DNA from: a virus
Taxonomy: Duplodnaviria > Heunggongvirae > Uroviricota > Caudoviricetes
DNA length: 17,984 bases
Direction: 5' to 3' (one strand)
IMG/VR virus record: IMGVR_UViG_2541047596_000007
Position numbers and translations under genes: made by a program. Below the pieces are notes generated by a model, which was given only the letters and a program-made list of their open reading frames with translations, ran no database searches and was not told where the DNA came from. Of this stretch, positions 1-17,984 are shown piece by piece. Every line of letters begins with the position of its first letter. The first letter of the stretch is position 1.

Positions 1-258
1 ATGCAAACCGTTATTTTTGGTCGTTCGGGTTGCCCTTACTGTGTGCGTGCAAAAGATCTGGCTGAGAAATTGAGCAATGAACGCGATGATTTTCAGTATC
101 AGTATGTAGATATTCGTGCGGAAGGGATCACTAAAGAAGATCTACAACAAAAGGCAGGTAAACCCGTAGAAACCGTGCCGCAGATTTTTGTCGATCAGCA
201 ACATATCGGCGGCTATACCGATTTTGCTGCATGGGTGAAAGAAAATCTGGACGCCTGA
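1..258 (+). CDS. grxA: Glutaredoxin 1
   Basis: 85-aa ORF starting at window position 1 with a CPYC active site (GCPYCVRAKDLAE). It matches my recollection of E. coli GrxA almost residue for residue. Confidence 0.93.
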   Translation: MQTVIFGRSGCPYCVRAKDLAEKLSNERDDFQYQYVDIRAEGITKEDLQQKAGKPVETVPQIFVDQQHIGGYTDFAAWVKENLDA

Positions 259-267
259 TCGTCTGAC

Positions 268-300
268 AAGCCCTCGCGTTGAGGGCTTTACTGATTTTTT
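268..300 (+). terminator. Rho-independent terminator downstream of grxA (convergent with ybjM)
   Basis: Inverted repeat AAGCCCTC / GAGGGCTT (268-275 and 281-288, 5-nt loop) followed by a T-run at 295-300. Confidence 0.45.
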
Positions 301-665
301 CTGTGCTGTGGTTTAAACAAACTACTGATAAATAAGAAACACAGTGCCCCCAGCGCACACCAGAACACCGCGCTTAGTAACCATGCCAGCTCTTGCCAGA
401 ATGAGCGCGTCGGTGAAAAAAACAGCCGCATAATGAGCATCGAACAGGGTGCCGCCAGCATTGCGCCAAACAGAGGTTTCAGGACTTCTCTACGCTGTGA
501 AAAGAAGCTGGCGACTGCTCCAGGAAGAATGAAAAATAGCAAGCCGATTTCAGGATGCCCGGCAGCCCGAAAAGCGCCTTTCATGTGCGTCGCCAGAAAA
601 AGGCACACCACAATGAAGAGGACAAAACAGCAGATTGCCCCCGCCCAACGTTGTTTATGTTTCAC
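288..665 (-). CDS. ybjM: Inner membrane protein YbjM
   Basis: 125-aa hydrophobic ORF convergent with grxA, matching the E. coli grxA-ybjM-ybjL neighbourhood as I recall it. Confidence 0.85.
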   Translation of the reverse strand: MKHKQRWAGAICCFVLFIVVCLFLATHMKGAFRAAGHPEIGLLFFILPGAVASFFSQRREVLKPLFGAMLAAPCSMLIMRLFFSPTRSFWQELAWLLSAVFWCALGALCFLFISSLFKPQHRKNQ

Positions 666-934
666 TCGTTCCTCCTGACACTGCGTCTATCGAACACATT
701 TTTCGCCAGTGTGGCGTTCAGTAAGATAAAGCCGCTTCGCATTCCATGCTAATATAGGCCAACGCAATTCATATAGCCGTTGATACCTAATGTGATTACA
801 CTAGTAAAATATATTGTTACTTTACTATCGTTTAGGTGCGCTGAATGAATCTGCGCCCTGAATTCTGGTAAAAAACATTATCGTAAATTACCATTTCTTT
901 CAACAGCTTACTAGTAAACAAGAAGTTAGCCTCC

Positions 935-2620
935 GTGAATATAAACGTCGCCGAATTGTTAAATGGGAATTACATTCTGTTATTATTTGTGGTCCTCGCG
1001 CTTGGGCTATGTCTCGGAAAGTTACGACTTGGTTCGATCCAACTGGGTAATTCCATTGGCGTTTTAGTCGTATCGCTGTTATTAGGCCAACAACATTTCA
1101 GCATTAACACCGATGCGCTTAATCTTGGCTTTATGCTGTTTATTTTCTGCGTCGGGGTCGAAGCCGGACCGAACTTTTTTTCCATTTTTTTTCGCGATGG
1201 GAAAAATTACCTAATGTTAGCACTGGTGATGGTTGGCAGTGCGCTGGTGATCGCCTTAGGGTTAGGTAAGCTGTTTGGCTGGGATATTGGCCTGACGGCC
1301 GGTATGTTAGCAGGCTCTATGACGTCGACACCGGTTCTGGTCGGTGCTGGCGATACACTGCGTCATTCCGGCATGGAAAGCAGGCAGCTCTCACTGGCAC
1401 TGGATAATCTGAGCCTCGGGTATGCCTTAACCTATTTAATCGGTCTGGTGAGTTTGATTGTTGGTGCGCGTTACTTGCCGAAATTGCAGCATCAGGACTT
1501 ACAGACCAGCGCCCAGCAAATCGCCCGCGAACGTGGCCTGGACACTGATGCCAACCGTAAGGTTTATTTACCGGTGATCCGCGCCTATCGCGTCGGCCCG
1601 GAACTGGTGGCCTGGACCGACGGCAAAAATCTGCGTGAACTGGGTATTTATCGACAAACCGGCTGCTACATTGAACGTATTCGACGTAACGGGATTCTGG
1701 CAAATCCAGACGGTGATGCCGTGCTACAAATGGGCGATGAAATAGCGTTGGTAGGCTATCCCGACGCCCATGCCCGACTCGATCCCAGCTTCCGTAACGG
1801 TAAAGAAGTTTTCGATCGTGACCTTCTCGACATGCGTATCGTCACTGAAGAAGTGGTCGTTAAAAACCATAACGCTGTAGGTAAACGTCTCGCACAACTG
1901 AAGTTGACCGATCACGGTTGCTTCCTTAACCGCGTCATTCGTAGCCAGATTGAGATGCCGATAGATGACAACGTCGTGCTTAACAAAGGTGACGTTTTAC
2001 AAGTCAGCGGCGATGCCCGCCGCGTAAAAACCATCGCCGATCGCATCGGCTTTATCTCGATTCACAGCCAGGTCACTGACCTGCTGGCATTCTGCGCCTT
2101 CTTTGTTATTGGGCTGATGATCGGGATGATCACCTTCCAGTTCAGCACATTCAGTTTCGGCATGGGGAACGCTGCCGGGTTGTTATTCGCCGGAATTATG
2201 CTGGGCTTTATGCGTGCTAACCACCCGACCTTCGGTTACATTCCGCAGGGTGCATTAAGCATGGTGAAAGAGTTCGGCTTGATGGTGTTTATGGCAGGCG
2301 TTGGTCTGAGCGCCGGTAGCGGTATTAATAACGGCCTGGGCGCGATTGGCGGTCAGATGTTGATTGCCGGATTGATTGTCAGTCTGGTGCCCGTGGTTAT
2401 CTGTTTCTTGTTCGGTGCTTATGTATTGCGAATGAACCGCGCGCTGTTGTTCGGCGCAATGATGGGCGCACGTACCTGCGCGCCGGCAATGGAGATCATC
2501 AGTGATACAGCTCGCAGTAACATCCCGGCGCTGGGCTATGCGGGCACCTATGCAATCGCCAACGTCCTGCTGACGCTGGCAGGGACAATCATCGTCATGG
2601 TATGGCCAGGATTAGGATAA
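935..2620 (+). CDS. ybjL: Putative transporter YbjL (AAE/YidE-YbjL family, TrkA-C domains)
   Basis: 561-aa ORF with hydrophobic N- and C-terminal halves flanking a soluble central region. Length and sequence are consistent with E. coli YbjL. Confidence 0.92.
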
Positions 2621-2855: not shown

Positions 2856-3074
2856 TCAAAGAGAGAGCGCCACCTGTCCTGATTTCATTGGATGCGGCTG
2901 AACCGGATTTGACTCTTTTGGCGTTGCAATCGAACGAACAAAAGTTTCATGGGTAACAAAAGTATGGCTGCAGTTAATGTTCTGGCACTGGTTGTAACGC
3001 TCTTTGGTCAATGAAGATACCTGAAAACTGCTGCGAGTATGGGCGGCACTTCCACACAGTGGGCAAATCATCAT
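2856..3074 (-). CDS. ogr: Ogr/Delta-family late transcription activator (Cys4 zinc finger)
   Basis: CPLCGSAAH...CQNINCSHTF zinc-finger pattern like P2 Ogr. Start chosen at the internal Met (MMICPLCG), preceded by GGGGAGAA on the minus strand, giving about 72 aa as in P2 Ogr. Confidence 0.8.
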   Translation of the reverse strand: MMICPLCGSAAHTRSSFQVSSLTKERYNQCQNINCSHTFVTHETFVRSIATPKESNPVQPHPMKSGQVALSL

Positions 3075-3164
3075 TTTTCGAGTTCTCCCCATTTTTGCTA
3101 AATTCACAATAATGATACCGCATTATTCCATTTTGCAAACTTAAAAGTTCTCCATTGCGAAGAA

Positions 3165-4001
3165 TCATTCCATTTCGAAATCATCAATCCTCACTTCAAG
3201 CTCCAGACTGGTCGTAAAACCATTATCCGGGCTTACGGTATGCGTCAGAGTCGTAATGGTCCATTCCGCATCATCTATCGGCTGTTTAAAGCCACTGACT
3301 TTCACTGGCATTTCCGTGTAGAGATCTGCCCGCCCTTCCGCCAGTTGTAACGAGAATGACGCAACGCCGCGTTGCAGGCGTTCCCACTGCATTTTCGCCG
3401 CTCGTTCGGCGTTGCTCCGGTTGGCATAAGTGCGATTAAGTACCAGCACGTTTTCATCCGTACCCACCAGGTAATCGCCCTGCTTCGCTTCCGGCTCTTT
3501 CTTCTGCTTCTTAGTCCTGCGCTTACGCTTCACCGTGGTGCTTTCTTTCTTCGCGGGTTCGCGGGTATGCAACCAGCTGGCAATTACGCCCGTGTAGGCT
3601 CCGCGATCTGCCAGGGTAAAGCGGTGACTGTCGCCGTCCTTACGTGTGATAGTGATAACCGGTAGTGGTTTACCGCTGGCGCTTTTACCCTGTCCCTGCC
3701 GGATGAATAACAGATTGCCATTTTTCACCGACGCAATAGCACCGTACTGGCGCGCCAGCCGCATCAGAAAACTGCCGTCACTCTCATTGGTCTGGTCTAT
3801 ATGCTCCACGGGTTTATCCGACAGGTCTTCACCCAATGCCATCTTCAGTTTGTGCCGCGCAGATATTTCCTTCACGACTTCCCCAACGGTGGTCTTGTGC
3901 CACGATTTTTCACGGCGGGTATTCAGCGTTTCACGAAAATCAGCACTTCGCGCCCGGATAGTCAGGCGGTCCGGTGCGCCAGTGTGTTCAATCTCGTCCA
4001 C
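3165..4001 (-). pseudogene. P2 gpD-like tail protein, N-terminally truncated remnant
   Basis: The 278-aa ORF (TGAPDRLTIRARSADFRETLNTRRE...DQTNESDGSFLMRLARQYGA) matches the middle and C-terminal part of P2 gpD. About 100 N-terminal residues of the roughly 387-aa protein are missing and the upstream gene U is absent. Confidence 0.7.
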
Positions 4002-4329
4002 CGTGAATGCCCCTTTCGGGAAAAGCGGCTGCCCGATGAAGCAAGCCCGCGTCGCAGCAGTGCCAGTGGTGCGCCAGCCAGCCAGGACAACGCGCTGCTG
4101 GTTCGAGTTACTGCTGCCGTAACGGAAGGTAACATTTTGATACCCAGCACAGAGAATCCCAGACGGATCACTGCCAGCGGCCCCAGCACTGCAGCCAGCG
4201 CCACCGCTAAGGTGCCGAGGCCCACGGTAACGGCAGCCACCACAGCGGCTACTTTCATCAGTGTGCCTGTCAGTTCCGGGTTAGCTTCCACCCAGCGACG
4301 CAACGCCCCTGTGACCGACGCCGCACAAA

Positions 4330-4700
4330 ACCAGGAGGATGTGAACAACCTCCGCAACGCGATGAAAAGCGCCAAAGGCCCAGGTAACTTCCGCAACCTG
4401 TTTATGTACTCGCCTAACGGCAAAAAGGACGGGCTTCAGATCATCCCGTTGTCAGAAGTCGCGGCGAAGGATGAGTTTTTGAATATCAAGAACGTGAGCC
4501 GGGATGACATGATGGCGGCGCATCGTGTGCCGCCTCAGATGATGGGGATTATGCCGAGTAATGTTGGCGGGTTTGGGGATGTGGAAAAGGCTAGTAAGGT
4601 TTTTGTAAGAAATGAAGTAATCCCCTTACAGCAAAGAATCTGTGAAATCAACCGATGGTTAAATGACGATATAATAAATTTTAAAGAATATTCGATGTAA
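4330..4700 (+). pseudogene. Phage portal protein (P2 gpQ-like), C-terminal fragment only
   Basis: The last ~120 aa of ORF 3801-4700 (FRNLFMYSPNGKKDGLQIIPLSEVAAKDEFLNIKNVSRDDMMAAHRVPPQMMGIMPSNVGGFGDVEKA) resemble the portal C-terminus. The N-terminal part of that ORF is antisense to the gpD region and not portal-like. The left boundary is approximate. Confidence 0.5.
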
Positions 4701-4732
4701 AATTAAAGAGTCTCAAATGAGACTCTTTAATT
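4701..4732. terminator. Bidirectional hairpin between portal remnant and HNH gene
   Basis: Perfect 14-bp inverted repeat AATTAAAGAGTCTC / GAGACTCTTTAATT (4701-4714 and 4719-4732) with a 4-nt loop, lying between two convergent stop codons. Confidence 0.55.
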
Positions 4733-5400
4733 TAAGGAAGCATCGTATCAAAAACATCACGCAACGCAGTAGAGAATGGTCTGGGGTCTATTTCTTTATA
4801 ATACTCGTCTCGAAGTTCGTTACGGACACTATCATCATAAAGTCCCTCTTCGATGAACTCTTCAGCTGTAGAAACAAATCTCTCTATCAATGACCATGTT
4901 TCTGATATTGCATTGATGCGCTCAGTTTTCACGCCGCCCTTTTCACCATTCAGGTTAAAAACCCTTATAGTAACCTCAGCTCTTCGCTCATCGTTTCGCG
5001 ATAACCCCGGACGAATATCCATATTTCCATTAATAGCGAAATGGAAAAAATGTGTGGGGTCATCATTATCGGCCTTGATTAGGTCTTGCTCCTGATAGCT
5101 CTGTTCATCTTTGTAAAAACCGCAGTGATTATTTTCAGCACAAGAGCCGAACAAGTTTGACCATTCAAATGTTAAATGCCTATGCTGGCTTCTACGCAAA
5201 AAATGCTCGATATGCTTATCATCACTATTGTGAATATCTATTTTCCGCTCACAATACGCACATCTCTTCCCTTGCATTTCAACTAAACCGACCCAGACTA
5301 ATTGTTTATGTCGCCGTTTAAAAGCATTCCAGTCATGAATATTGTAGTCAAACTCGGCTAAAACACCTGGACCAATGGGATTTCTAGCAAGGAATTTCAT
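4732..5400 (-). CDS. HNH endonuclease, PtuB-like retron/Septu effector
   Basis: 222 aa with an HNH signature (CAYCERKIDIHNSDDKHIEHF ... CAENNHCG). The start overlaps the upstream ATPase stop in an ATGA junction. Confidence 0.8.
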   Translation of the reverse strand: MKFLARNPIGPGVLAEFDYNIHDWNAFKRRHKQLVWVGLVEMQGKRCAYCERKIDIHNSDDKHIEHFLRRSQHRHLTFEWSNLFGSCAENNHCGFYKDEQSYQEQDLIKADNDDPTHFFHFAINGNMDIRPGLSRNDERRAEVTIRVFNLNGEKGGVKTERINAISETWSLIERFVSTAEEFIEEGLYDDSVRNELRDEYYKEIDPRPFSTALRDVFDTMLP

Positions 5401-7052
5401 TGTTTAGATTCCTTATTGCCAGACTCACCCCGCACTTTGTCTTTTAGCTTTAATACACGAATTATACCATCACACTCAAGTAATAATGGGTGATCAATTC
5501 CATAATGCTTGTCTAACTTTTTCCTTATCATTATGGCTTCCTCCGAATCCTGCTGCCTGTTTTCAATAAATTTCTTATAAGTGCTCAGCCATGCGACTTC
5601 TTTTACATTAGGTACAGGATCTGTTTTCATCCCATAAAGCAAAGCGTACGAATTCTTAGTACCTTTTGTTTGAGATGATGGTAAAAGCACACGTAATTCC
5701 TTCATGCCTGTCGAAGGGTTTTTTATTTCCTCAAGGATGCGCAAGCATTTACTTGGAACTGTCGATACAATTTGAGGGCTATGAGTGGTAATTATGAATT
5801 GTACGTTAGGAAATGTATGCTGCAATTTCTCAATAATGTTTTGCTGCCAGCTTGGGTGCAAATGAAGATCAACTTCATCAATTAATACTATACCTTTCCC
5901 TTGAAGTGGATTATTTAACTTAGGATTCAGCAACACCAAGCGTCTTGTTAAATCCCCCACTAATGTAAGTATAGTTTTCTCCCCTTGAGAGAGTTGCTGG
6001 GCATCTAATAGTAAATCATCTTTTGCTAAAACTAAACGAACTTCATTTTCAGTATATTGAAGTTCAACAGAGCTAATTTCAGGAAGGAAATTAATTATTG
6101 CCCTTTTAACATTAGCAACAATATCTTTTGAACGACTTAAACCATTTGGTGTAGACGGTAACGTATTAAGAATCAACTCTTTATTAGCAATTTGTGTTTC
6201 TATATCTATTAATGTTCTTCTATCAACATCACTGAAAGATTTCAAAACCTCCAAAGATACCTTAAGCTTTGAGATATCAATAACAAGTTGATCTCTTTGT
6301 TTTTCTGGTATCAAGGACTCCTCAGACAATGCCTTATTATTAACAAATATAAACCAATTTAAAAACTCACCGAAGTCACGGCGATCAAACTCTATATCTT
6401 CATAAGCATCAAGCTTAGTCCATCGACGCACAGAATTATTAACATTTCTTTTATTATCTATGCCTGCACCATTTGAAGATCTTGATACAGAGTAATATGC
6501 AAGAACCGGAAGGCTTACATCTTCATAATATGAATTCACAACACGAAAGAATGACGCCATCTCTTTTATAGAAAGCAACTCATTATTTCTTTTTTGTGAT
6601 ACTCCATCTTTAACACGTGTAACTAAAATATTTGACGTTATTTTTTTAAGTTTAAACTGCGCAGTTATTGCAGCATAATTGACATCATTATGATTGTTAA
6701 TATCACCATCTTTTATATGAAAACCGCTTTTATCTTCTTTTTGAACATTTGCTCTAAACCAACTTAAAGCAATAAATAATGCTTCAAGAATGGTGGTTTT
6801 ACCGTAACCATTATCACCAACAAACACTGTTAGTTTTTTGTCGATCGAAACAAAAAGATCCCTGACTCTTTTATAGTCTGAGATGGCGACTTTATTTATA
6901 AGAAATGGTGCATCTTCAATTTCCTTATATAACGAAGATACCTCTTCAGGAATGTTCTCTTTACTGAATTCTAAACCATCTTCAGTTTTATTTACATAAG
7001 ACTGCAATAATGTACGAATGTCATTTGGTGATTTAGTATACTTTGAGTTCAC
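5397..7052 (-). CDS. ABC/SMC-like ATPase, PtuA-like retron/Septu partner
   Basis: 551 aa with Walker A (GDNGYGKTT), an ABC-signature-like LSQGEK, and Walker B/H-loop (VLIDEVDLHLHP). Overlaps the RT stop and the HNH start by ATGA at both ends. Confidence 0.82.
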   Translation of the reverse strand: MNSKYTKSPNDIRTLLQSYVNKTEDGLEFSKENIPEEVSSLYKEIEDAPFLINKVAISDYKRVRDLFVSIDKKLTVFVGDNGYGKTTILEALFIALSWFRANVQKEDKSGFHIKDGDINNHNDVNYAAITAQFKLKKITSNILVTRVKDGVSQKRNNELLSIKEMASFFRVVNSYYEDVSLPVLAYYSVSRSSNGAGIDNKRNVNNSVRRWTKLDAYEDIEFDRRDFGEFLNWFIFVNNKALSEESLIPEKQRDQLVIDISKLKVSLEVLKSFSDVDRRTLIDIETQIANKELILNTLPSTPNGLSRSKDIVANVKRAIINFLPEISSVELQYTENEVRLVLAKDDLLLDAQQLSQGEKTILTLVGDLTRRLVLLNPKLNNPLQGKGIVLIDEVDLHLHPSWQQNIIEKLQHTFPNVQFIITTHSPQIVSTVPSKCLRILEEIKNPSTGMKELRVLLPSSQTKGTKNSYALLYGMKTDPVPNVKEVAWLSTYKKFIENRQQDSEEAIMIRKKLDKHYGIDHPLLLECDGIIRVLKLKDKVRGESGNKESKQ

Positions 7053-7990
7053 ATCCCCTCCTCAGAAAAAAGCGCATGTATTACTTCTTTCCCATATTTA
7101 ATTTTCATTCTAGCAATAAATTTAGGCTCTATATATAAAGCATGTCCAACAAAGCCCTTAAGGCTTATAACATCCTCTTTAGCCAGTAAGCCTAGTGTAT
7201 ATTTATGCAGCAGAGAAGAAATCATTCTCTTCTTTTGCCTACCGAGCGAAAGCTCCCCATCAACTGTTAATGTCACACCTGTCACATGTCTATTATGAGC
7301 TTTAGACGTGAATACAGTTTTAGATTCATTTAAAGATATACCTTTAGCACATAATGATAATGCAAACCTTACTACTTTCGGGACCTCAAAAAGTATATTC
7401 TTCTCATCTGTAGAAAATGTAATATCATCAGCATACCTTGAATATGAAATATTCCTAACAGAGCACCAATTGTTTATATAATTATCAAAATCATACATTA
7501 CAAAATTACTAACAAAAGGTGAGGATGGCGCCCCAACGCTCAACACGAGAGTGATACTTCTTTTTTTTCCTGGTTTCCAGAAAAGAATCCCTTCTAAAAA
7601 CTCCTTATCCTCACCTGACAAAACAACCCCTTGAGAGCGAAGTTTATCAAATAAAAGAGCCGGTTTAATTTTATTGAAGAAATTCTGAAAATCCATTTTT
7701 AAAAGATAGGAGTTTGCCATATGGATTTTGGCATTGTCCTTAATTCCTATAGAAACTTTATAAGCTTTCGCTGCATCGTGCACGATGAGCTTGGAAGCCA
7801 AAATTTTCACAACCTCACGCTGAATTCGCTTTATCTCACTCGTTGGTTGAGCAATAAGCCTGAATCCACTTTGTCGTTTAGGAATTGTGTAGACTTTATA
7901 TTTTTTAGGCGCAACACTCGATAACCGCCTCAGCTCGTTAACGTTTACTCCAAGTTCTTTGCTAACAGCCGATAAAATTTCCATAAACAT
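7049..7990 (-). CDS. Retron-type reverse transcriptase
   Basis: 313 aa with RT motifs: LKMDFQNFF (motif A), GAPSSPFVSN (motif B) and RYADDITFS (YADD catalytic motif C). Its size and the adjacent structured ncRNA fit a retron RT. Confidence 0.88.
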   Translation of the reverse strand: MFMEILSAVSKELGVNVNELRRLSSVAPKKYKVYTIPKRQSGFRLIAQPTSEIKRIQREVVKILASKLIVHDAAKAYKVSIGIKDNAKIHMANSYLLKMDFQNFFNKIKPALLFDKLRSQGVVLSGEDKEFLEGILFWKPGKKRSITLVLSVGAPSSPFVSNFVMYDFDNYINNWCSVRNISYSRYADDITFSTDEKNILFEVPKVVRFALSLCAKGISLNESKTVFTSKAHNRHVTGVTLTVDGELSLGRQKKRMISSLLHKYTLGLLAKEDVISLKGFVGHALYIEPKFIARMKIKYGKEVIHALFSEEGM

Positions 7991-8270
7991 TCCGCTTGTG
8001 AGGCCCGCTTGCGCGGGCCGAGCTCTTCACTAAAGACAGCGAAAGCGACGAATTCCGCCTTCGTAAACTATGGCAACAGCCATAGGATGCGAAGGCGGAA
8101 TTCGTCGCTTTCGCAACCCTAAACTGAGCAATAAATTAGAGCCTGGCTTATCGCCCGGCTAGAACGCAATGGTTCCCTAACGCTAAAGAGCATAGGAATA
8201 CTAATGTTGCAACGAACAAATAGCAAGCCGGGCGCGCGCTCGTATCCCCGCCACGCCTGCCCGCTTTATG
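7991..8270 (-). ncRNA. Retron msr-msd non-coding RNA (boundaries approximate)
   Basis: Non-coding GC-rich region immediately upstream of the RT on the same strand. It contains the long msd hairpin (8039-8114), a 7-bp hairpin GGCCCGC-TTGC-GCGGGCC (8002-8019) and a long-range complement CGCCCGGCT (8152-8160) / AGCCGGGCG (8226-8234). I could not identify a1/a2 by eye. Confidence 0.55.
8039..8114 (-). repeat. msd stem-loop: perfect 25-bp inverted repeat
   Basis: GCGAAAGCGACGAATTCCGCCTTCG (8039-8063) is the exact reverse complement of CGAAGGCGGAATTCGTCGCTTTCGC (8090-8114). The 26-nt loop holds an inner 6-bp palindrome CTATGG/CCATAG (8068-8073 and 8080-8085). Confidence 0.85.
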
Positions 8271-8300
8271 TAGTGGTTTTCATGCACCTGCATGATCTAC

Positions 8301-8326
8301 GCAAAAGCCCGCCAGTTCTGGCAGGC
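8301..8326 (-). terminator. Candidate rho-independent terminator after the DinI-like operon
   Basis: On the minus strand, GCCUGCCAG-AAC-CUGGCGGGC forms a 9-bp stem with one G-U pair, followed by UUUUGC. Confidence 0.35.
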
Positions 8327-8460
8327 CTTAGCAAAAACGATCCTCAAACGATCATGCGATCTCATGCGGCATAGACATGCACCACAGAGCTAACGCCTCG
8401 CACAGCTCGTTGTTCAACCTTGCTGACGCCAGAAGCAAGTTCAGACGCCAGCAGCGTTTC

Positions 8461-8694
8461 TTAATGCAGCCAGCTGTCGTCTTCCCACACCTTCTGCATA
8501 ATTTTCATCACTTGTTTTCTTTCTTCGTCCAGTTGCAGTCCGGTCAGTTCCACACCGTTAGAGCTACCTTTGCGGATACGAATTACCGTTTTGGGATACA
8601 GGGGGCGCAGATTGCGGTAAAGCTCGGATTCAAGGGCGTCCAGGATAGACTGGCTAATCTTCTGCTCTTTATCGATCATTATTTCAATGCGCAT
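8461..8694 (-). CDS. DinI-family protein (77 aa)
   Basis: Start taken at the internal Met MRIEIMIDK, preceded by GAGGTG. The pattern MRIE...DAL..EL...W.DD.W parallels E. coli DinI (MRIEVTIAK...WESADDW). Confidence 0.78.
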   Translation of the reverse strand: MRIEIMIDKEQKISQSILDALESELYRNLRPLYPKTVIRIRKGSSNGVELTGLQLDEERKQVMKIMQKVWEDDSWLH

Positions 8695-8704
8695 AAAAGT
8701 CACC

Positions 8705-8893
8705 TCAGTTGATGACATCCATTGAGCGGTTGTATTCGTGGCTTCTGATTTTTGCCATGAGTTCATCTGTCAATTCAGAAACCCACTGCAGAGCCAGCCC
8801 CTTCTCTTCATCACTACACTCACTAGCCGCTACAAGCTTAAGAAAAAAATCAATGCGCTGGAGCTTCAAAGACTCCAAAAAATAGTCCTGCAT
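8705..8893 (-). CDS. Small hypothetical protein (62 aa), first gene of LexA-box operon
   Basis: Start chosen at MQDYFLESL because of a strong SD (GGAGGAAAG then ATG) and LexA boxes just upstream. The longer 96-aa reading would place the LexA boxes inside the coding region. Confidence 0.5.
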   Translation of the reverse strand: MQDYFLESLKLQRIDFFLKLVAASECSDEEKGLALQWVSELTDELMAKIRSHEYNRSMDVIN

Positions 8894-8919
8894 CTTTCCT
8901 CCTATGACACCACAAGCAA

Positions 8920-8954
8920 TACTGTATGCATAAACACTGTTTATATTTACAGTA
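8920..8954. promoter_or_regulatory. LexA (SOS) box plus adjacent half-matching box upstream of the small-ORF/DinI-like operon
   Basis: caCTGTttatatttACAGta (8935-8954) fits CTGT-N8-ACAG with an AT-rich spacer. The overlapping CTGTatgcataaACAC (8922-8937) is a near match. Confidence 0.6.
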
Positions 8955-9046
8955 TATAATAATCTTACTGATGTAAAACGTTTTTTTACGTTCATCAGCC
9001 TGATATGCCTGGTATTATTAAGAGCACGAATTGTTAACCCGCGTAA

Positions 9047-11461
9047 TTAATACAGGTTCCGCCACTTATCATCTTCCTGCAAACGCTGGTTCCGATAGAA
9101 GATACGCAGGCCTGCTCCTGACGGAATACTGCCACCGCGAAGGAGCAAATCGACCTCTTTCTCGCTGCCATCAAATCCTCTGGACTTCAGTTCATAGACG
9201 AGCTGCTGACGCTGATGCTCTGTAATTCGCTGTTTGTAGTCTTTACGCCGTTTCGGTTTAACCAGGCGTAATCTTGCTACCAGTTCCCGGCGCTCTTTTT
9301 TGTTCATACAGTGCAGGTAATCGTGCAACTCCTTGTCATCCATGCGGGTGATATCCGTTCTGGTATCCCCATCAGCTGATTTGTCTTTCCCTTGTTGGTA
9401 CAAATTTTCAGCAAGGGGACAGTTATTGCCACGAGTCCAAGGGGCGCAAGCGCTCTGGTCGGCTACCGCCTCCTGAACGTCAACGGCCTTACGAACCATT
9501 TTCCACTTCACTGCATGAGTGCAGATCTTGCCCTCTGCAATGGGTGACCAGATGCCATAAATACGAATACCGTGATCGCCATAGGCGGTCGGCTCTTCGT
9601 TAATTTCATAAGCAGTTCTGATGAGGTGATATTTACGGGGAACCAGTACACCTCCCTGCTTCATGATATAGGTGGCAAAACAACCAGCATCAGCAGCAGC
9701 CAGAATGGCATCAAGGCGCGGGTTATCCAGTACCGGCACACCTGCTTTTTTGTCACCCTGCTGCCTTGCCGCCTGACCAGCCAGCAATCGCAGTTCACGG
9801 TAAGCCTGACGCCCCGGAATACCAAAGAAGCGGAATTGCTGAACACGATGCAAAGACGCCCAGGCATTCACGTATTCAGCGTTATCACGAAGAGATTTAC
9901 CCGTTTCCTTGCTGATCTCGCCAGCCAGACCACGCCCGTCAATGTTCTTACTGATGTATTTCGCTATGTAGCTTGTCGGCGTTCCTTTGCGCGGGTTAAT
10001 CAGCTCAGACTTAAAGCGCGGCCCCGTGTTATTGCCCAGCTCCTCGCGGTCTTCACGGATAGCAAACTTACGCAACAATGCAGTAATGGCGCGGCGGTCT
10101 TTTTTGCGCATGAAACACAACAGGTGCCAGTGAACTGTGCCGTCGTGATGCGGCTCAGCCACCCGCACGCCATACCAGCGCAACCCGGCTTTGTGCATCG
10201 CCTTACGAAATGCAGCAAACATACCGACCAGATAATCGCTGCTTTGTCTTACCGTCGCGTTTTTCCAGGTCGGATTGGGTCTGCCGTTATTGAGCGTGGA
10301 ATGGAAACGTGACGGACAGGTAATGGTGTAGAAAACGGCGCAGTCACCGCGCATTTCCGCGATAAGCTCCAGACCTTTAACACAGGCCATCATCTCATTG
10401 CGGCGATGCGCCGGGTTGCTGCAGCTGGCGTTTACCACATCTTCCATATCCAGCGCGTCTCCGTCTTCGTTCACCAGTTCATGAGAACGGAAAAACTCCA
10501 GCGACTTACGGCACTGCTCACGTTTATGCATCACAGCTTCATAGCTGACATAGGGAGATGCTTTTTTGCTGACCAGGCAGACAGCACGCAACTGCTCTTC
10601 CCGCCATTCGCAACGCATCTTCCACAATTTCCGATACCACCAGTCGGCGCACAGCATACGCGCCAGCGAGCCCGGAATGAGTTCATAGGGCACGGGTTTA
10701 CGGCGGTTTCTTTTCCGACGGAGTTGCTCAAACGCAGGCGGGATGACATCCAAACGTAGGGTTTCCGCTGCCACCTTTTCCCATGTCTTGCGGATTTCTT
10801 CTGGCTTAACATCATCGGTGGCGTACAAATCACCACAAGCGGCATCAAGACACATGCTCATATGCGCAGCGACAAGGGTAGACAGGCGTTTCACCTGATC
10901 CTGACTCATTTCAGGCAGGATCAGCAGGCCGTCCAGCCCTTCATGGCTTGCCATAAAGCGAAAAGAAGTGGATAGCTGACTGTCGCGTACATGCTCCAGT
11001 CGTTCCAGACATGGCTTAATCGTCTCACGCAAATAGCGGGAATAAGCCTTTGGCCTGCCCAGACTGCTGAAGTATTCAATACGTTGCATCAGCGGCTTGC
11101 TGATATGGGAAGGCTGGGCGTTGACGTCAGCCAGAATGACCATGTCTGGATTAAAACGCTGCTGCTCATGCGCCAGCTTTGCCCGGCTAATGAGCTTATC
11201 CTGCTCCATTTCGCGCTGGACAGGATCACGGGATTCATTAAAGAAATAACGCTCCCAGACCTGCTCACTCAGTGCCTCGCGGCGCAGTTGTTCCTGCTCG
11301 TTATCGGCAGCATACAGAGTGATCAGGTTTGAAAGTGCAGACTCCGGCGCAAATTCCGCCGGGTCCAGATAAGGGTTAATGGCCTTTTTCGGGCCGTTCC
11401 ATGAAAATGATGCAGCGGCCTCGTTAAAGCCGCTAGAGTTGCTCATATCGTCATGACTCAT
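9047..11461 (-). CDS. A: P2/186 gene A-like rolling-circle replication initiator
   Basis: 804 aa with an HUH-type metal motif ([10 protein letters not shown]) and paired tyrosines ([10 protein letters not shown]), as in the P2 A endonuclease. The start overlaps the Dam stop by ATGA. Confidence 0.88.
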
Positions 11462-14241: not shown

Positions 14242-15120
14242 ATGAATTTCAAAAACGGAGGACAGGCAGTCATAAAGCGCATGCTTGAAGCGTATGGATT
14301 CAAGACGCGGCAAGCCCTATGTGAACAGTTCAATGTATCTGCAAGTACTATGGGAACGCGCTGGATGCGTGACGCATTTCCTGCTGACTGGGTAATTCAG
14401 TGTGCAATTGAAACAGGAGCATCTATAGAGTGGCTCTCATTCGGAAAAGGCGTGCCATTTCCTAAGAATACCGAAGTTCCCGCTAAATTAGAGGAACCAG
14501 CATCATTGGTTCAATATGTTCCCAAAGCCACCACCAACGAGAACCCAATTGTGAACCATCCAAATCTGGATTCAGGTGGACGTAATGCGATAAACAGGCT
14601 AATGGAAGCGTATGGCTTTAAAACAAGACAAGAACTTGCCGACCATTTGAATGTGTCTAAAAGCACAATGGCGAATAGATACTTGCGAGACACATTCCCA
14701 GCTGACTGGATCATAAGATGCTCGTTGGAAACAAGAACTTCTCTTTTATGGTTAGCAACTGGGCGCGGGCAAAAACTTGGAAGCGAAGAAAGTGAAGCTT
14801 TAGAAATTCCTAAAGTAAAACTTATTGACAATCAAATTTTCGATGCTGGTCATTTATTGATAGATAAGTCCCTGCTTCCTCATTTTAATGATTTACTCGC
14901 AATTGAAGACGAACATTGCATAAATATTGCACACATGAATAAAGCTAATGTTGAAGACGGAAGATGGATTGTTCAATACCAAAATAATTTCAAGTTAAAA
15001 CAAATTTTTCTATTACCTGGAGGCAATCTTCGAGTAACAGACGATGATTTAACATTTGATTGTGAAAAAGAAGATATAAAATTAGTTGCCAAAATTTTCT
15101 CACAGTACCGTACTATTTAA
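14242..15120 (+). CDS. CI-like repressor with tandemly duplicated N-terminal CI-type HTH domains
   Basis: 292 aa. Residues ~5-70 (RMLEAYGFKTRQALCEQFNVSASTMGTRWMRDAFPADWVIQCAIETGASIEWL) and ~111-176 (RLMEAYGFKTRQELADHLNVSKSTMANRYLRDTFPADWIIRCSLETRTSLLWL) are homologous copies of the phage CI-repressor HTH fold, followed by a distinct ~115-aa C-terminal domain. Confidence 0.72.
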   Translation: MNFKNGGQAVIKRMLEAYGFKTRQALCEQFNVSASTMGTRWMRDAFPADWVIQCAIETGASIEWLSFGKGVPFPKNTEVPAKLEEPASLVQYVPKATTNENPIVNHPNLDSGGRNAINRLMEAYGFKTRQELADHLNVSKSTMANRYLRDTFPADWIIRCSLETRTSLLWLATGRGQKLGSEESEALEIPKVKLIDNQIFDAGHLLIDKSLLPHFNDLLAIEDEHCINIAHMNKANVEDGRWIVQYQNNFKLKQIFLLPGGNLRVTDDDLTFDCEKEDIKLVAKIFSQYRTI

Positions 15121-15135
15121 TCTTGAGGCATAGTA

Positions 15136-16164
15136 ATGGATTTTATAAAAAAACTCGAATTTGGAAATTATACTCTCCGTTTTGGTGATGATGTTTTGCT
15201 AGACTATTATGATGAAATTGTTTTCCCCTCTTTTTTGGAGATGGCAAACATCCGCAGAATATCTGACAAATCAGAGTTCTTTTTCATTGATACTGAATGC
15301 GTCATACTTGACGAAGAAGCAACACCCCCAGTACTCGGAATTAAAGGTCGGATTATTAAGAATACATTATTAACCAGAGAACAAGTATTTGATGGTGCTG
15401 ATTTGGTTGAAGATCATAAAGAGCTTGAAACAGCCCCGAGCTCTTTCTTTCTTCTAATATTAAACACTCACAGATTAATTCTTTGCAAGGAAGTTAGTGG
15501 TGCTCCCACAATTCAAAACTTTCAGTCAACAAGTCAGTGTTTCTTAAACATAGAATATGAAAAATACATATCTCATTTATACGAAACCGCACAAGAAGAA
15601 CGCAAAGAAAACCCTGACTTACCTCGAGTCACTAAAAAAAGCTTACGGAACGAAATCAAACGCCCGAAGCTAAGAATAACGCCGTTAACTGACAAACAAA
15701 GCCTAGAGCAATTTATTGATAATTTTAATAAAATCCAAAATGTCTCAGTAAAACTTCTCCCTACAAATCAAGAAGAAATTGATAACGACGAATTTTGGGA
15801 GTCGCTTGAAAGTGCCGGAGACGAAATGGGAAGTATTTCTACATCTATTCGCTTTTCAAACACCGATTCAGGCTTGAATCATGGTGCTGTTTTAGAACAA
15901 CTCACATCAGCAACCAGATTGGCTAATTCAGGAATAAATATTAAAGGATATGATGACAATGGTGATATAATCAAAGGTAGCAATGATGACTTTGTTTTGT
16001 TAAGTGAGATGAATGAATTATCAAAGGATACGGTAGTAGCTGCAAATGAAAGTTATGAGCGGTATGAAAATCTTGTAGAAGAAGGTAAGATATCTCTACC
16101 CCGTTCTCTTTCACAAAAGACGATTAGAATTATTAGCAATATATATGAAAGGTTTGGTCGATGA
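15136..16164 (+). CDS. Hypothetical soluble protein, unrecognised family (candidate exclusion/defence component A)
   Basis: 342-aa ORF 15 nt downstream of the cI stop, with GAGG about 8 nt upstream of the ATG. Visibly AT-rich compared with the phage core. No catalytic or NTP-binding motif recognised; two domains separated by a charged linker. Confidence 0.7.
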   Translation: MDFIKKLEFGNYTLRFGDDVLLDYYDEIVFPSFLEMANIRRISDKSEFFFIDTECVILDEEATPPVLGIKGRIIKNTLLTREQVFDGADLVEDHKELETAPSSFFLLILNTHRLILCKEVSGAPTIQNFQSTSQCFLNIEYEKYISHLYETAQEERKENPDLPRVTKKSLRNEIKRPKLRITPLTDKQSLEQFIDNFNKIQNVSVKLLPTNQEEIDNDEFWESLESAGDEMGSISTSIRFSNTDSGLNHGAVLEQLTSATRLANSGINIKGYDDNGDIIKGSNDDFVLLSEMNELSKDTVVAANESYERYENLVEEGKISLPRSLSQKTIRIISNIYERFGR

Positions 16165-16841
16165 TAAATAAAATAGATGCTAAAGAAATAACCAAAGAGA
16201 AAAACCTTTGGGATGTTTACTTGCTCTGCAAACGGATTACTATTAGTACATTCCATATTTGCATTTTGCTCACAGCATCTATTTTTTTATTAACAAACTC
16301 TTTTTTTATTGAGAAGGATATGTCTCATTTAGTATCTGACATTAGAAACTGGGCTTTGATTGGTTTTAACTTTGCAGTGACAACCTTAGGTTTTCTCATT
16401 GCTGGTTTCACAATATTTGCAACACTATCCAAACCCGAGATGTTTCTTCAGATGATGTCAATACAACATAAAAAAACACAGATGCCCACGTTAAAATATA
16501 ACTTTATGGCATTTATGAAAGTTTTCATCTCATTTATTACGTTTACTTTCATTTATCTAATAATAATTCTCTTTTGTCAAAAAGATGGAATAATTGGTAA
16601 TATAATTGATTTATTTCCATATTCAAAATCGATAAAAGAATTAATTATTAAATTTGGATACTGTGTTATAGGGACTAGCCTTATTTACTTAGTGTTAGTA
16701 GTAAAGACATTTATTTTTAATATCTACGCTATCATAATGAATAATATTCGTTGGGAGTTATACATTAAAAGAAAAGAACAAAGACTTTCCAGTAACAAAG
16801 AGACAATCAATAAAAACATAGATGTAACTAAAATGCATTAA
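16161..16841 (+). CDS. Hypothetical four-TM membrane protein (candidate exclusion/defence component B)
   Basis: 226 aa whose start overlaps the upstream stop by ATGA. Four hydrophobic segments of about 23-30 residues (approx. aa 26-50, 64-89, 115-139, 162-194). Very AT-rich. Confidence 0.7.
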   Translation: MINKIDAKEITKEKNLWDVYLLCKRITISTFHICILLTASIFLLTNSFFIEKDMSHLVSDIRNWALIGFNFAVTTLGFLIAGFTIFATLSKPEMFLQMMSIQHKKTQMPTLKYNFMAFMKVFISFITFTFIYLIIILFCQKDGIIGNIIDLFPYSKSIKELIIKFGYCVIGTSLIYLVLVVKTFIFNIYAIIMNNIRWELYIKRKEQRLSSNKETINKNIDVTKMH

Positions 16842-16878: not shown

Positions 16879-16907
16879 TTGACACTGTATAAAAAAACAG
16901 TATAAAT
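16879..16907 (+). promoter_or_regulatory. Sigma70-like promoter with embedded LexA box upstream of int
   Basis: TTGACA (16879-16884), 16-bp spacer, TATAAA (16901-16906). The spacer contains caCTGTataaaaaaACAGta (16883-16902), a CTGT-N8-ACAG LexA box. GGAGGG (16918-16923) precedes the int ATG. Confidence 0.5.
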
Positions 16908-16931
16908 ACTCTCCACTGGAGGGCATTTTTT

Positions 16932-17984
16932 ATGGCAGTACGAAAACTCACCACAGGAAAATGGCTTTGCGAATGTTACCCCGCCGGACGTAGTGGACGT
17001 CGTGTGCGTAAACAATTCGCCACCAAAGGCGAAGCACTGGCTTTTGAGCGTCACACGATGGAAGAAACCGAAGCAAAGCCCTGGCTAGGTGAATCAGTGG
17101 ATCGTCGAACACTGAAAGACGTGGTTGAGCTATGGTTCAAACTACATGGTAAATCACTGACAGCTGGGCAGCATGTCTATGACAAATTGCTGCTGATGGT
17201 TGACGCTCTGGGCAATCCCCTTGCAACCGATCTAACCTCTAAAATGTTTGCCCACTATCGAGATAAACGCCTGACAGGTGAGATCTACTTCAGCGAGAAA
17301 TGGAAGAAAGGAGCAAGCCCGGTCACCATTAACCTGGAGCAAAGCTATCTAAGTAGTGTTTTTAGCGAACTATCCCGCCTGGGCGAATGGTCGTATCCGA
17401 ACCCACTGGAGAACATGCGAAAATTCACCATCGCAGAAAAAGAGATGGCATGGCTTACCCATGAGCAGATTGTTGAATTACTGGCTGATTGCAAACGTCA
17501 TGACCCAATTCTGGCACTGGTAGTTAAGATATGCTTAAGCACAGGCGCACGCTGGCGAGAAGCCGTAAATCTTACTCGTTCACAGGTGACCAAATACCGA
17601 ATTACCTTTGTAAGAACGAAGGGGAAGAAAAACAGAAGCATCCCTATCAGTAAAGAGCTTTACGAAGAGATCATGGCGCTTGATGGGTTCAATTTCTTCA
17701 CAGACTGCTATTTTCAATTTTTATCCGTGATGGAAAAAACGTCTATCGTCCTCCCTCGCGGTCAACTGACACACGTTCTGCGCCATACGTTTGCGGCGCA
17801 TTTCATGATGTCGGGTGGAAATATCCTTGCTTTGCAAAAAATCCTCGGACATCACGATATAAAAATGACTATGCGTTACGCTCATCTGGCACCGGATCAT
17901 CTGGAAACGGCGCTCCGTTTCAACCCTCTGGCAACGCTGCCAAGTGGCGACAAAGTGGCGGCAGCGGTTGGCATTACCCCGTAA
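16932..17984 (+). CDS. int: P2/186-type tyrosine integrase
   Basis: 350 aa with the tyrosine-recombinase catalytic pattern: R in STGARWREA, HxxR in HVLRHTFAAHF, and the tyrosine in MRYAHL. The N-terminus resembles P2 Int (MAVRKL vs MAIKKL). The stop codon is the last triplet of the window. Confidence 0.9.
   Translation: MAVRKLTTGKWLCECYPAGRSGRRVRKQFATKGEALAFERHTMEETEAKPWLGESVDRRTLKDVVELWFKLHGKSLTAGQHVYDKLLLMVDALGNPLATDLTSKMFAHYRDKRLTGEIYFSEKWKKGASPVTINLEQSYLSSVFSELSRLGEWSYPNPLENMRKFTIAEKEMAWLTHEQIVELLADCKRHDPILALVVKICLSTGARWREAVNLTRSQVTKYRITFVRTKGKKNRSIPISKELYEEIMALDGFNFFTDCYFQFLSVMEKTSIVLPRGQLTHVLRHTFAAHFMMSGGNILALQKILGHHDIKMTMRYAHLAPDHLETALRFNPLATLPSGDKVAAAVGITP

Follow-up and report, generated by a model that had tools for sequence, protein, structure and literature searches.

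A 17,984-nucleotide (nt) stretch of viral DNA, IMG/VR virus record IMGVR_UViG_2541047596_000007 (hereafter the window, taken at its full length), raises the question of whether two short minus-strand open reading frames (ORFs) directly downstream of gene A constitute a two-gene version of tum, the antirepressor gene of phage 186, and, if so, which of the two encodes the antirepressor. The sequence-only reading of this locus had noted a full LexA box and an adjacent near-match ahead of a 62-amino-acid (aa) ORF and a 77-aa DinI-family ORF lying 10 nt apart, and had compared them with 186, which uses a LexA-controlled tum whose product is about 146 aa long and DinI-like in its C-terminal half. 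We confirmed the coordinates of all these elements, and the statements about 186 are correct, the length and DinI-like half of Tum agreeing with the 186 record and PMC3121763 and the LexA control of tum with PMC7708051. The proposal of a split or two-gene Tum module is supported by profile homology, by the alignment of the second ORF with Tum, by the promoter layout and by the corresponding gene pairs of PsP3 and Fels-2. Accordingly, we regard the module, with high confidence, as the split tumA-tumB SOS operon of a Fels-2/186-like (Peduoviridae) prophage.

This carries little weight as a discovery: the split form of tum has already been published and is annotated in GenBank, and the copy in the window is 98-99% identical to the Fels-2 pair. 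The analysis itself establishes how the locus is built, which proteins are homologous to its products, that it is conserved and that it is nearly identical to Fels-2, and only the association of Tum type with the type of the CI N-terminal domain and a LexA-box promoter ahead of int are somewhat, if mildly, new. The practical value lies in annotation. The small upstream gene is labelled 'hypothetical protein' in RefSeq and has no Pfam or NCBIfam family, even though 1125 of the 5426 complete E. coli genomes (~21%) and many hundreds of IMG/VR contigs carry the TumAB module; a tumA annotation would flag SOS-inducible P2-like prophages.

The two genes and their counterparts in Tum

The upstream gene, ORF1 (tumA-like; 62 aa including Met; 8705..8893, minus strand), runs from an ATG at 8893 to a TGA at 8707-8705 and is preceded by a Shine-Dalgarno (SD) sequence, AGGAGG, at 8903-8898, while the downstream gene, ORF2 (tumB-like; 77 aa; 8461..8694, minus), runs from an ATG at 8694 to a TAA at 8463-8461 behind the SD GAGGTG at 8706-8701. 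The ORF2 SD overlaps the ORF1 stop codon and the intercistronic gap of 10 nt (8695..8704, minus) is identical in all 82 of 82 related split loci, from which we infer that translation of the two genes is coupled. Longer forms of 96 aa (from 8995) and 101 aa (from 8766) were rejected, as they start upstream of the promoter and inside ORF1, respectively, and lack an SD. For comparison, we sampled the 80 best IMG/VR matches for each type of Tum N-terminal half; the comparison covered 245 loci with 41,638 ORFs. Among the related loci, both genes are under strong purifying selection, in frame only: the ratio of nonsynonymous to synonymous substitution rates is 0.065 for ORF1 and 0.075 for ORF2, against 0.68 and 2.7 in shifted-frame controls, an estimate that is biased downward because the loci were picked by protein identity. 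Throughout the 83 sampled loci that encode it, the ORF1-type protein keeps at least 97% identity.

ORF2 is readily placed in the DinI family, as had been proposed. It matches the Pfam DinI model PF06183 (E 1.3e-22; 80.4 bits, cutoff 24.2) and the E. coli DinI structures 1GHH/7YWA (E 3.6e-6), and it reaches 42 bits with the NCBIfam DinI equivalog NF007893, for which 111 are required; it is hence a phage paralogue and not an orthologue of host DinI. The chromosomal DinI of E. coli, which belongs to the same Pfam family and bears detectable structural-sequence similarity to ORF2, is itself LexA-regulated. ORF2 corresponds to positions 71-148 of the 151 positions of phrog_189, a profile that also covers full-length Tum, and it aligns directly with residues 71-145 of 186 Tum (41% identity, E 9e-25). 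Its ATG aligns with an internal GTG start (codon 71) annotated in the 186 record for a truncated Tum; this GTG has its own AGGAGG, and the truncated product is annotated 'modulates SOS induction'.

The proposed alignment of both ORFs to Tum therefore holds for ORF2 by direct comparison, and it holds for ORF1 by profiles, though not by BLASTP. ORF1 is a member of phrog_698 (E 1e-37) and further matches two families of stand-alone proteins, phrog_8554 (1e-8) and phrog_1993 (2e-3); the N-terminal 70 aa of Tum match phrog_1993 (2e-23), phrog_8554 (3e-12) and phrog_698 (6.7e-6), the last in register (7-44 against 7-44). An hhalign comparison of a diverse ORF1 profile with an alignment of the N-terminal half of 186 Tum matched columns 5-44 of the two with a probability of 95.8% (E 7.5e-9); diverse representatives were needed for this, and shallow alignments (effective number of sequences ~1) reached E 0.002 only. 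The core recovered from distant relatives reads LQRI(E/D)L(I/V)ARLV....C...DKELAL.WIAEL, against IERVEMIARLTAEGTCQERDREIALNLIAEI in Tum. When a hidden Markov model of the ORF1 family was run over the 41,638 ORFs, only the 83 ORF1-type and 81 186-Tum-type ORFs matched, and a profile search of 1.84 billion representative proteins retrieved 87 ORF1 relatives, nearly all of them stand-alone proteins of 35-104 aa. Neither among these 87 representatives nor in the 83 loci is an ORF1-type protein fused to DinI. Judged by these profiles, ORF1 is a remote homologue of the N-terminal half of Tum. Its AlphaFold2 model is a two-helix hairpin (helices 2-23 and 28-61) with a predicted local distance difference test score of 89.9 and a conserved Cys26 at the turn. 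No PDB relative was detected, the sequence search and a Foldseek search with the model returning generic helical hairpins, none at E <= 0.001. We accordingly predict ORF1 to be an antirepressor with a two-helix-hairpin fold.

Both the fused and the split arrangements anticipated for related prophages occur, and the arrangement follows lineage. The ORF1-type loci are split in 82 of 83 cases, with the 10-nt gap; the 186-type loci are fused in 79 of 81; and of the PsP3-type loci, 50 have two separate genes 3 nt apart. The other 30 of the 80 PsP3-type tumA loci are without any downstream DinI gene (e.g., L201-L214; 7041-7223 in L202), and the small antirepressor gene therefore exists wholly alone. 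With the 186 type of Tum, the window shares a LexA box over a promoter below gene A, homology to Tum residues ~5-44 and a DinI-like region, but the single polypeptide of ~146 aa is here interrupted by the TGA at 8707-8705 and the 10-nt gap. With the split tumA/tumB type, it shares two adjacent ORFs, identity to a described member and a 186-type, non-cleavable CI in a P2-like early region.

That described member is Fels-2 of Salmonella Typhimurium LT2 (NC_010463), in which STM2728 is 98.4% identical to ORF1 and STM2726.1, itself annotated as similar to PsP3 TumB, is 99% identical to ORF2. The two loci also agree in their placement downstream of gpA, in the length of the gap (10 nt), in the promoter and in having tandem LexA boxes. 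They differ in that Fels-2 is a complete prophage and the window a remnant, in that the pair is followed in Fels-2 by a 243-aa ORF (STM2726) and further cargo and in the window by a retron, and in the Fels-2 CI, which has one helix-turn-helix (HTH) domain in 210 aa and is 36% identical to the CI of the window. PsP3 (NC_005340) has a split pair, named tumA/tumB, under a LexA box after gene A; its tumA carries the annotation 'similar to 5' end of 186 tum; UV induction of prophage', alongside a DinI-like tumB. PsP3 TumB is 76% identical to ORF2, whereas PsP3 TumA is only about 20-22% identical to ORF1, the genes are 3 nt apart instead of 10, and a single LexA box stands 37-40 nt before the start, as against 59 nt and a second near-box in the window. 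The PsP3 CI has two HTH domains like that of the window, but its N-terminal domain falls in a different cluster. Phage 186 itself has both halves of Tum in one polypeptide, orf97 as the next gene of the operon where the window has a terminator and the retron, and a CI N-terminal domain of another type.

The literature bears out this placement. Lemire et al. (2011, PMC3121763) observed that Tum looks like an antirepressor fused to DinI and, citing Bunny, Liu & Roth (2002), that in Fels-2 and PsP3 tum is split by a stop codon; a text search of the literature for tumA/tumB returned only irrelevant papers. A more distant parallel is offered by the dinI-gfoA/gftA genes of Gifsy-1/2/3, which combine a LexA-controlled DinI homologue with a small antirepressor of a non-cleavable repressor (PMC3121763). 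The order is reversed there, with dinI first, and these prophages are lambdoid rather than P2-like; their antirepressors and repressors belong to other families than those of the window.

LexA boxes, promoters and transcript ends

The two LexA elements proposed upstream of ORF1 are present on the minus strand. Box 1 is an exact CTGT-N8-ACAG match at 8937-8952 (20-mer TACTGTAAATATAAACAGTG, 8954..8935), and scores 17/20 against the consensus by hand count. The window contains two exact boxes, against 0.18 expected from shuffles, and two or more were seen in only 4 of 200 shuffles. Box 2 (20-mer CAGTGTTTATGCATACAGTA, 8920..8939; core 8922-8937) has one mismatch, with a good ACAG half-site and a defective GTGT half-site, shares 5 nt with box 1 and is situated downstream of the -10 hexamer. 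Alone it proves nothing, because one-mismatch boxes occur in the window at chance level (7 against 5.0 expected). In the related loci, its ACAGTA arm is kept and its spacer varies, and MAFFT aligns it with the single LexA box of 186 and PsP3.

The left arm of box 1 doubles as the -10 hexamer TACTGT (8954..8949) of a predicted p95-like sigma-70 promoter (8949..8977, minus), with the -35 hexamer TTTACA at 8977..8972 and a 17-nt spacer. When the 160 nt preceding ORF1 were scanned for hexamer pairs, TTTACA-17-TACTGT ranked first. The same layout is found at p95, the promoter of the 146-aa Tum of 186, which lies downstream of gene A and is annotated as TTCACA-18-TACTGT with its -10 inside the LexA site. 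Across the 83 related loci, both hexamers are invariant and the SD is conserved, and the exact LexA box stands 58-59 nt before the ATG in 81 of them. A consensus promoter scan listed only a plus-strand match, TAAACA-18-TATAAT at 8931-8960 (10/12), which lies inside the LexA boxes and points toward the 3' end of gene A. We rejected it as probably a by-product of the AT-rich LexA palindrome, because only the antisense 3' end of gene A lies downstream on that strand, though it may direct an antisense, LexA-controlled transcript.

Hairpins flank the operon on both sides. Past the gene A stop (9047) and ahead of the tum promoter lies a hairpin at 8967..8999 (minus), the 3' arm of which overlaps the -35 hexamer and which may serve to terminate or insulate the early operon; the segment 8955-9050(-) folds at -18.9 kcal/mol (z -2.2). 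Terminator-like palindromes are likewise found ahead of the LexA box in the Gifsy prophages (PMC3121763). On the distal side, a hairpin at 8300..8329 (minus), ~130 nt past the end of tumB and before the retron msr, resembles an intrinsic terminator, with an 11-bp GC-rich stem followed by UUUU (-25.4 kcal/mol, z -2.8). It divides the retron from the SOS operon, and the transcript probably ends here; folding shows this hairpin, but a consensus scan did not list it. Another candidate terminator, the hairpin at 8443-8412 right after the tumB stop, was rejected as being no better than shuffles (z -0.4).

The second exact LexA box of the window, CTGTATAAAAAAACAG (16885-16900, plus), lies ahead of int, where it fills the spacer of a near-consensus TTGACA-16-TATAAA promoter 26 nt before the int start (16880-16931). 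The region is identical in E. coli 8GC (L245), and the same layout recurs with other box sequences in three further loci (L066, L028 and L026); 4 of 64 Fels-2-type loci and 0 of 69 186-type loci display it. This distribution suggests an SOS-controlled int promoter in elements in which cargo genes part cI from int.

The CI repressor, Tum specificity and the alternatives

The presumed target of TumA is the CI immunity repressor of the window (186-type; 292 aa; 14242..15120, plus), which combines two HTH domains with a CI C-terminal domain and matches Pfam Phage_CI_repr in two stretches (1.7e-59) and Phage_CI_C (2.2e-16). The tandem-HTH architecture is shared with PsP3 CI (28% identity) and with the IMG/VR relatives L044, L066, L071 and L076, in contrast to the single-HTH CI proteins of 186 and Fels-2. 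We split the CI proteins into the HTH domain proximal to the C-terminal domain and the C-terminal domain itself, and compared each with the accompanying Tum type. The CI partners of ORF1-type TumA have a mean identity of 75% (minimum 53%) in the HTH domain, as against 41% (minimum 20%) in the C-terminal domain, and HTH domains belonging to different Tum types are 38-45% identical. Upon clustering of the HTH domains at 60-70% identity, all 72 ORF1-type loci fall in one cluster, which is shared with no other Tum type and includes the second HTH domain of the window CI, and there are two cross-type exceptions overall; single-linkage at 55% chained two types of N-terminal domain together, and 60-70% separates them cleanly. 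The adjusted mutual information with Tum type is 0.93 for the N-terminal domain type, compared with 0.63 for the C-terminal domain, at least 14 clusters of which accompany ORF1-type TumA. This pattern, which is correlative and comes from a non-independent sample, fits an antirepressor contacting the DNA-binding domain of CI. We found no paper stating which domain of CI is bound by Tum.

Two loci show unusual pairings: L137 has a 186-type fused Tum beside a PsP3-type CI HTH domain, and L228 a PsP3-type TumA beside a 186-type CI HTH domain. These may be non-inducible recombinants or natural tests of specificity.

By analogy with 186, in which the experimentally shown sequestration of CI by Tum follows LexA-dependent derepression of p95 (PMC7708051), and with work on PsP3 and Fels-2, we infer LexA binding, TumA-CI binding and a role for TumB in the window. 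In the undamaged cell, the operon would be off because LexA-held box 1 contains the -10 hexamer of the p95-like promoter. DNA damage would yield active RecA and trigger the self-cleavage of LexA, releasing a short bicistronic mRNA that would start a few nt after 8949 and end near the ~8300 hairpin. TumA, as a 62-aa helical hairpin, would then bind the 186-type CI, most likely at its HTH N-terminal domain, and keep it off its operators, such that the early lytic operon (apl, cII, fil ... A) would be derepressed. The most likely role of TumB is to bind RecA filaments and adjust how strong the SOS signal is or how long it lasts; it probably does not act on CI.

The CI comparison further leads us to a tentative idea, which we consider possible though less likely than its negation: that Fels-2-type TumA is a master-key antirepressor directed at the HTH N-terminal domain of CI rather than at its oligomerisation domain, that prophages are cross-induced through it and that in some elements, the prophage of the window among them, the SOS response also acts directly on int through its LexA-box promoter. 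If so, one near-invariant 62-aa TumA would serve CI proteins with C-terminal domains down to 20% identical, including tandem-HTH forms, and prophages with differing CI proteins would be cross-induced by each other's TumA. A defective remnant could then trigger, or be triggered by, co-resident P2-like prophages, and excision would be a second direct output of the SOS response where int has its LexA-box promoter. The site of the Tum-CI contact and cross-induction among P2-like prophages are both amenable to testing.

Several points weigh against the assignment of the locus as a functional split tum operon. BLASTP aligned ORF1 with neither 186 Tum nor PsP3 TumA at E <= 100, which we ascribe to pairwise comparison simply being too weak for the shared 40-residue core, and even the ORF1 profile matches PsP3 TumA weakly (hhalign E 0.003). 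The antirepressor activity of the upstream gene in PsP3 is known second-hand, as a personal communication quoted in PMC3121763. The recognition of the window CI by TumA as its cognate is only assumed, because this CI is 36% identical to that of Fels-2 and has an extra HTH domain, and shared descent, instead of contact, could explain why Tum type goes with the type of CI N-terminal domain. Finally, the prophage is defective, and the module may be functionally idle in its host genome.

The last point underlies the alternative that survives best, namely that the module is idle or repurposed here, with TumA mismatched to the resident CI, acting only in trans on other Fels-2-like prophages, or with TumB serving as an extra host DinI. 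The deletion of the head, tail and lysis genes speaks for it, as does a TumA 98% identical to the Fels-2 protein beside a CI that has diverged far more, and antirepressor crosstalk in trans is documented for Salmonella prophages (PMC3121763). Against these stand the HTH domain proximal to the C-terminal domain of the resident CI, which clusters with those of all the other partners of ORF1-type TumA, and the presence of the same CI and tumAB in a full-length prophage. We hold this alternative to be a minority view that deserves serious attention; it is compatible with the assignment as a split tum operon because it concerns the consequence and not the identity of the module. Since the virion genes are lost, induction would in any case result in no phage production and at most in derepression, excision, replication or an effect in trans.

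A second possibility is that TumA and TumB assemble into a full Tum and that only the complex inactivates CI. The single polypeptide of 186 is consistent with this, as are the pairing of tumA with tumB in 82 of the 83 related loci and the 10-nt spacing with SD-stop overlap, which suggests coupled, roughly equimolar synthesis. We nonetheless deem it unlikely. The 30 PsP3-type loci dispense with the DinI gene, 186 itself makes the DinI-like part separately from the internal start annotated as modulating SOS induction, and dinI deletions left the induction of Gifsy prophages unchanged (PMC3121763). Moreover, only TumA behaves like a specificity subunit, because TumB is conserved across lineages (76% between ORF2 and PsP3 TumB) and TumA diverges with CI (~20%). 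Such patterns would be expected if the antirepressor gene changes along with its target and the neighbouring DinI gene is a conserved but dispensable accessory, and for this reason we give the two-subunit reading a low rank. Of the two-piece antirepressor put forward in the sequence-only reading, the two-gene form is hence real, but the activity is reported in the upstream gene alone in PsP3 (PMC3121763), and TumB, by this analogy, is probably an accessory rather than half of the antirepressor.

The remaining alternative, that only the DinI-like gene matters and that ORF1 is a leader peptide or an unrelated small protein without antirepressor-based induction, could appeal to the missing family, PDB and BLASTP matches of ORF1 and its 'hypothetical protein' label, but is highly improbable in light of the profile homology of ORF1 to the N-terminal half of Tum, its strong in-frame purifying selection, its confidently folded model, the near one-to-one association of its type with that of the CI N-terminal domain and the homologous stand-alone PsP3 gene annotated for ultraviolet induction.

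The prophage remnant and its cargo

The left end of the window (1-2620) carries host genes for a glutaredoxin and an Asp-Al_Ex/TrkA_C permease, and a P2/186-like (Peduoviridae) prophage fills the remainder. Deletion has reduced this prophage to a remnant: all capsid, terminase and lysis genes and most tail genes are gone from it, the loss of the virion genes being evident from an N-terminally truncated gpD (3165-4001, minus) that directly abuts a C-terminal portal fragment (3801-4700, plus). The genes retained include ogr (2856-3107) and an early operon on the minus strand in the order cII, fil, DUF5347, DUF2732, DksA-type zinc finger, dam and gene A (9047-11461), directly downstream of which, on the same strand, lies the tum module; int (16932-17984, plus) occupies the right end. 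A full-length prophage of E. coli 8GC (NZ_CM136786) has the same CI, cargo, int and tumAB as the window.

The P2 cargo hotspot in the interval between tumB and the portal fragment is occupied by a complete type I-A (Ec78-like) retron (4732-8191, minus), consisting of the msr (8123-8191; Rfam RF00170, 55 bits), the reverse transcriptase (7049-7990), the PtuA ATPase (5397-7052) and the PtuB HNH nuclease (4732-5400), all on the minus strand. A second block, between cI and int, comprises two overlapping ORFs of 342 and 226 aa (15136-16841, plus), for which Pfam and PADLOC gave no match. These may be cargo or defence genes, and the block is found at 80% or more coverage in only 13 of the 5426 complete E. 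coli genomes.

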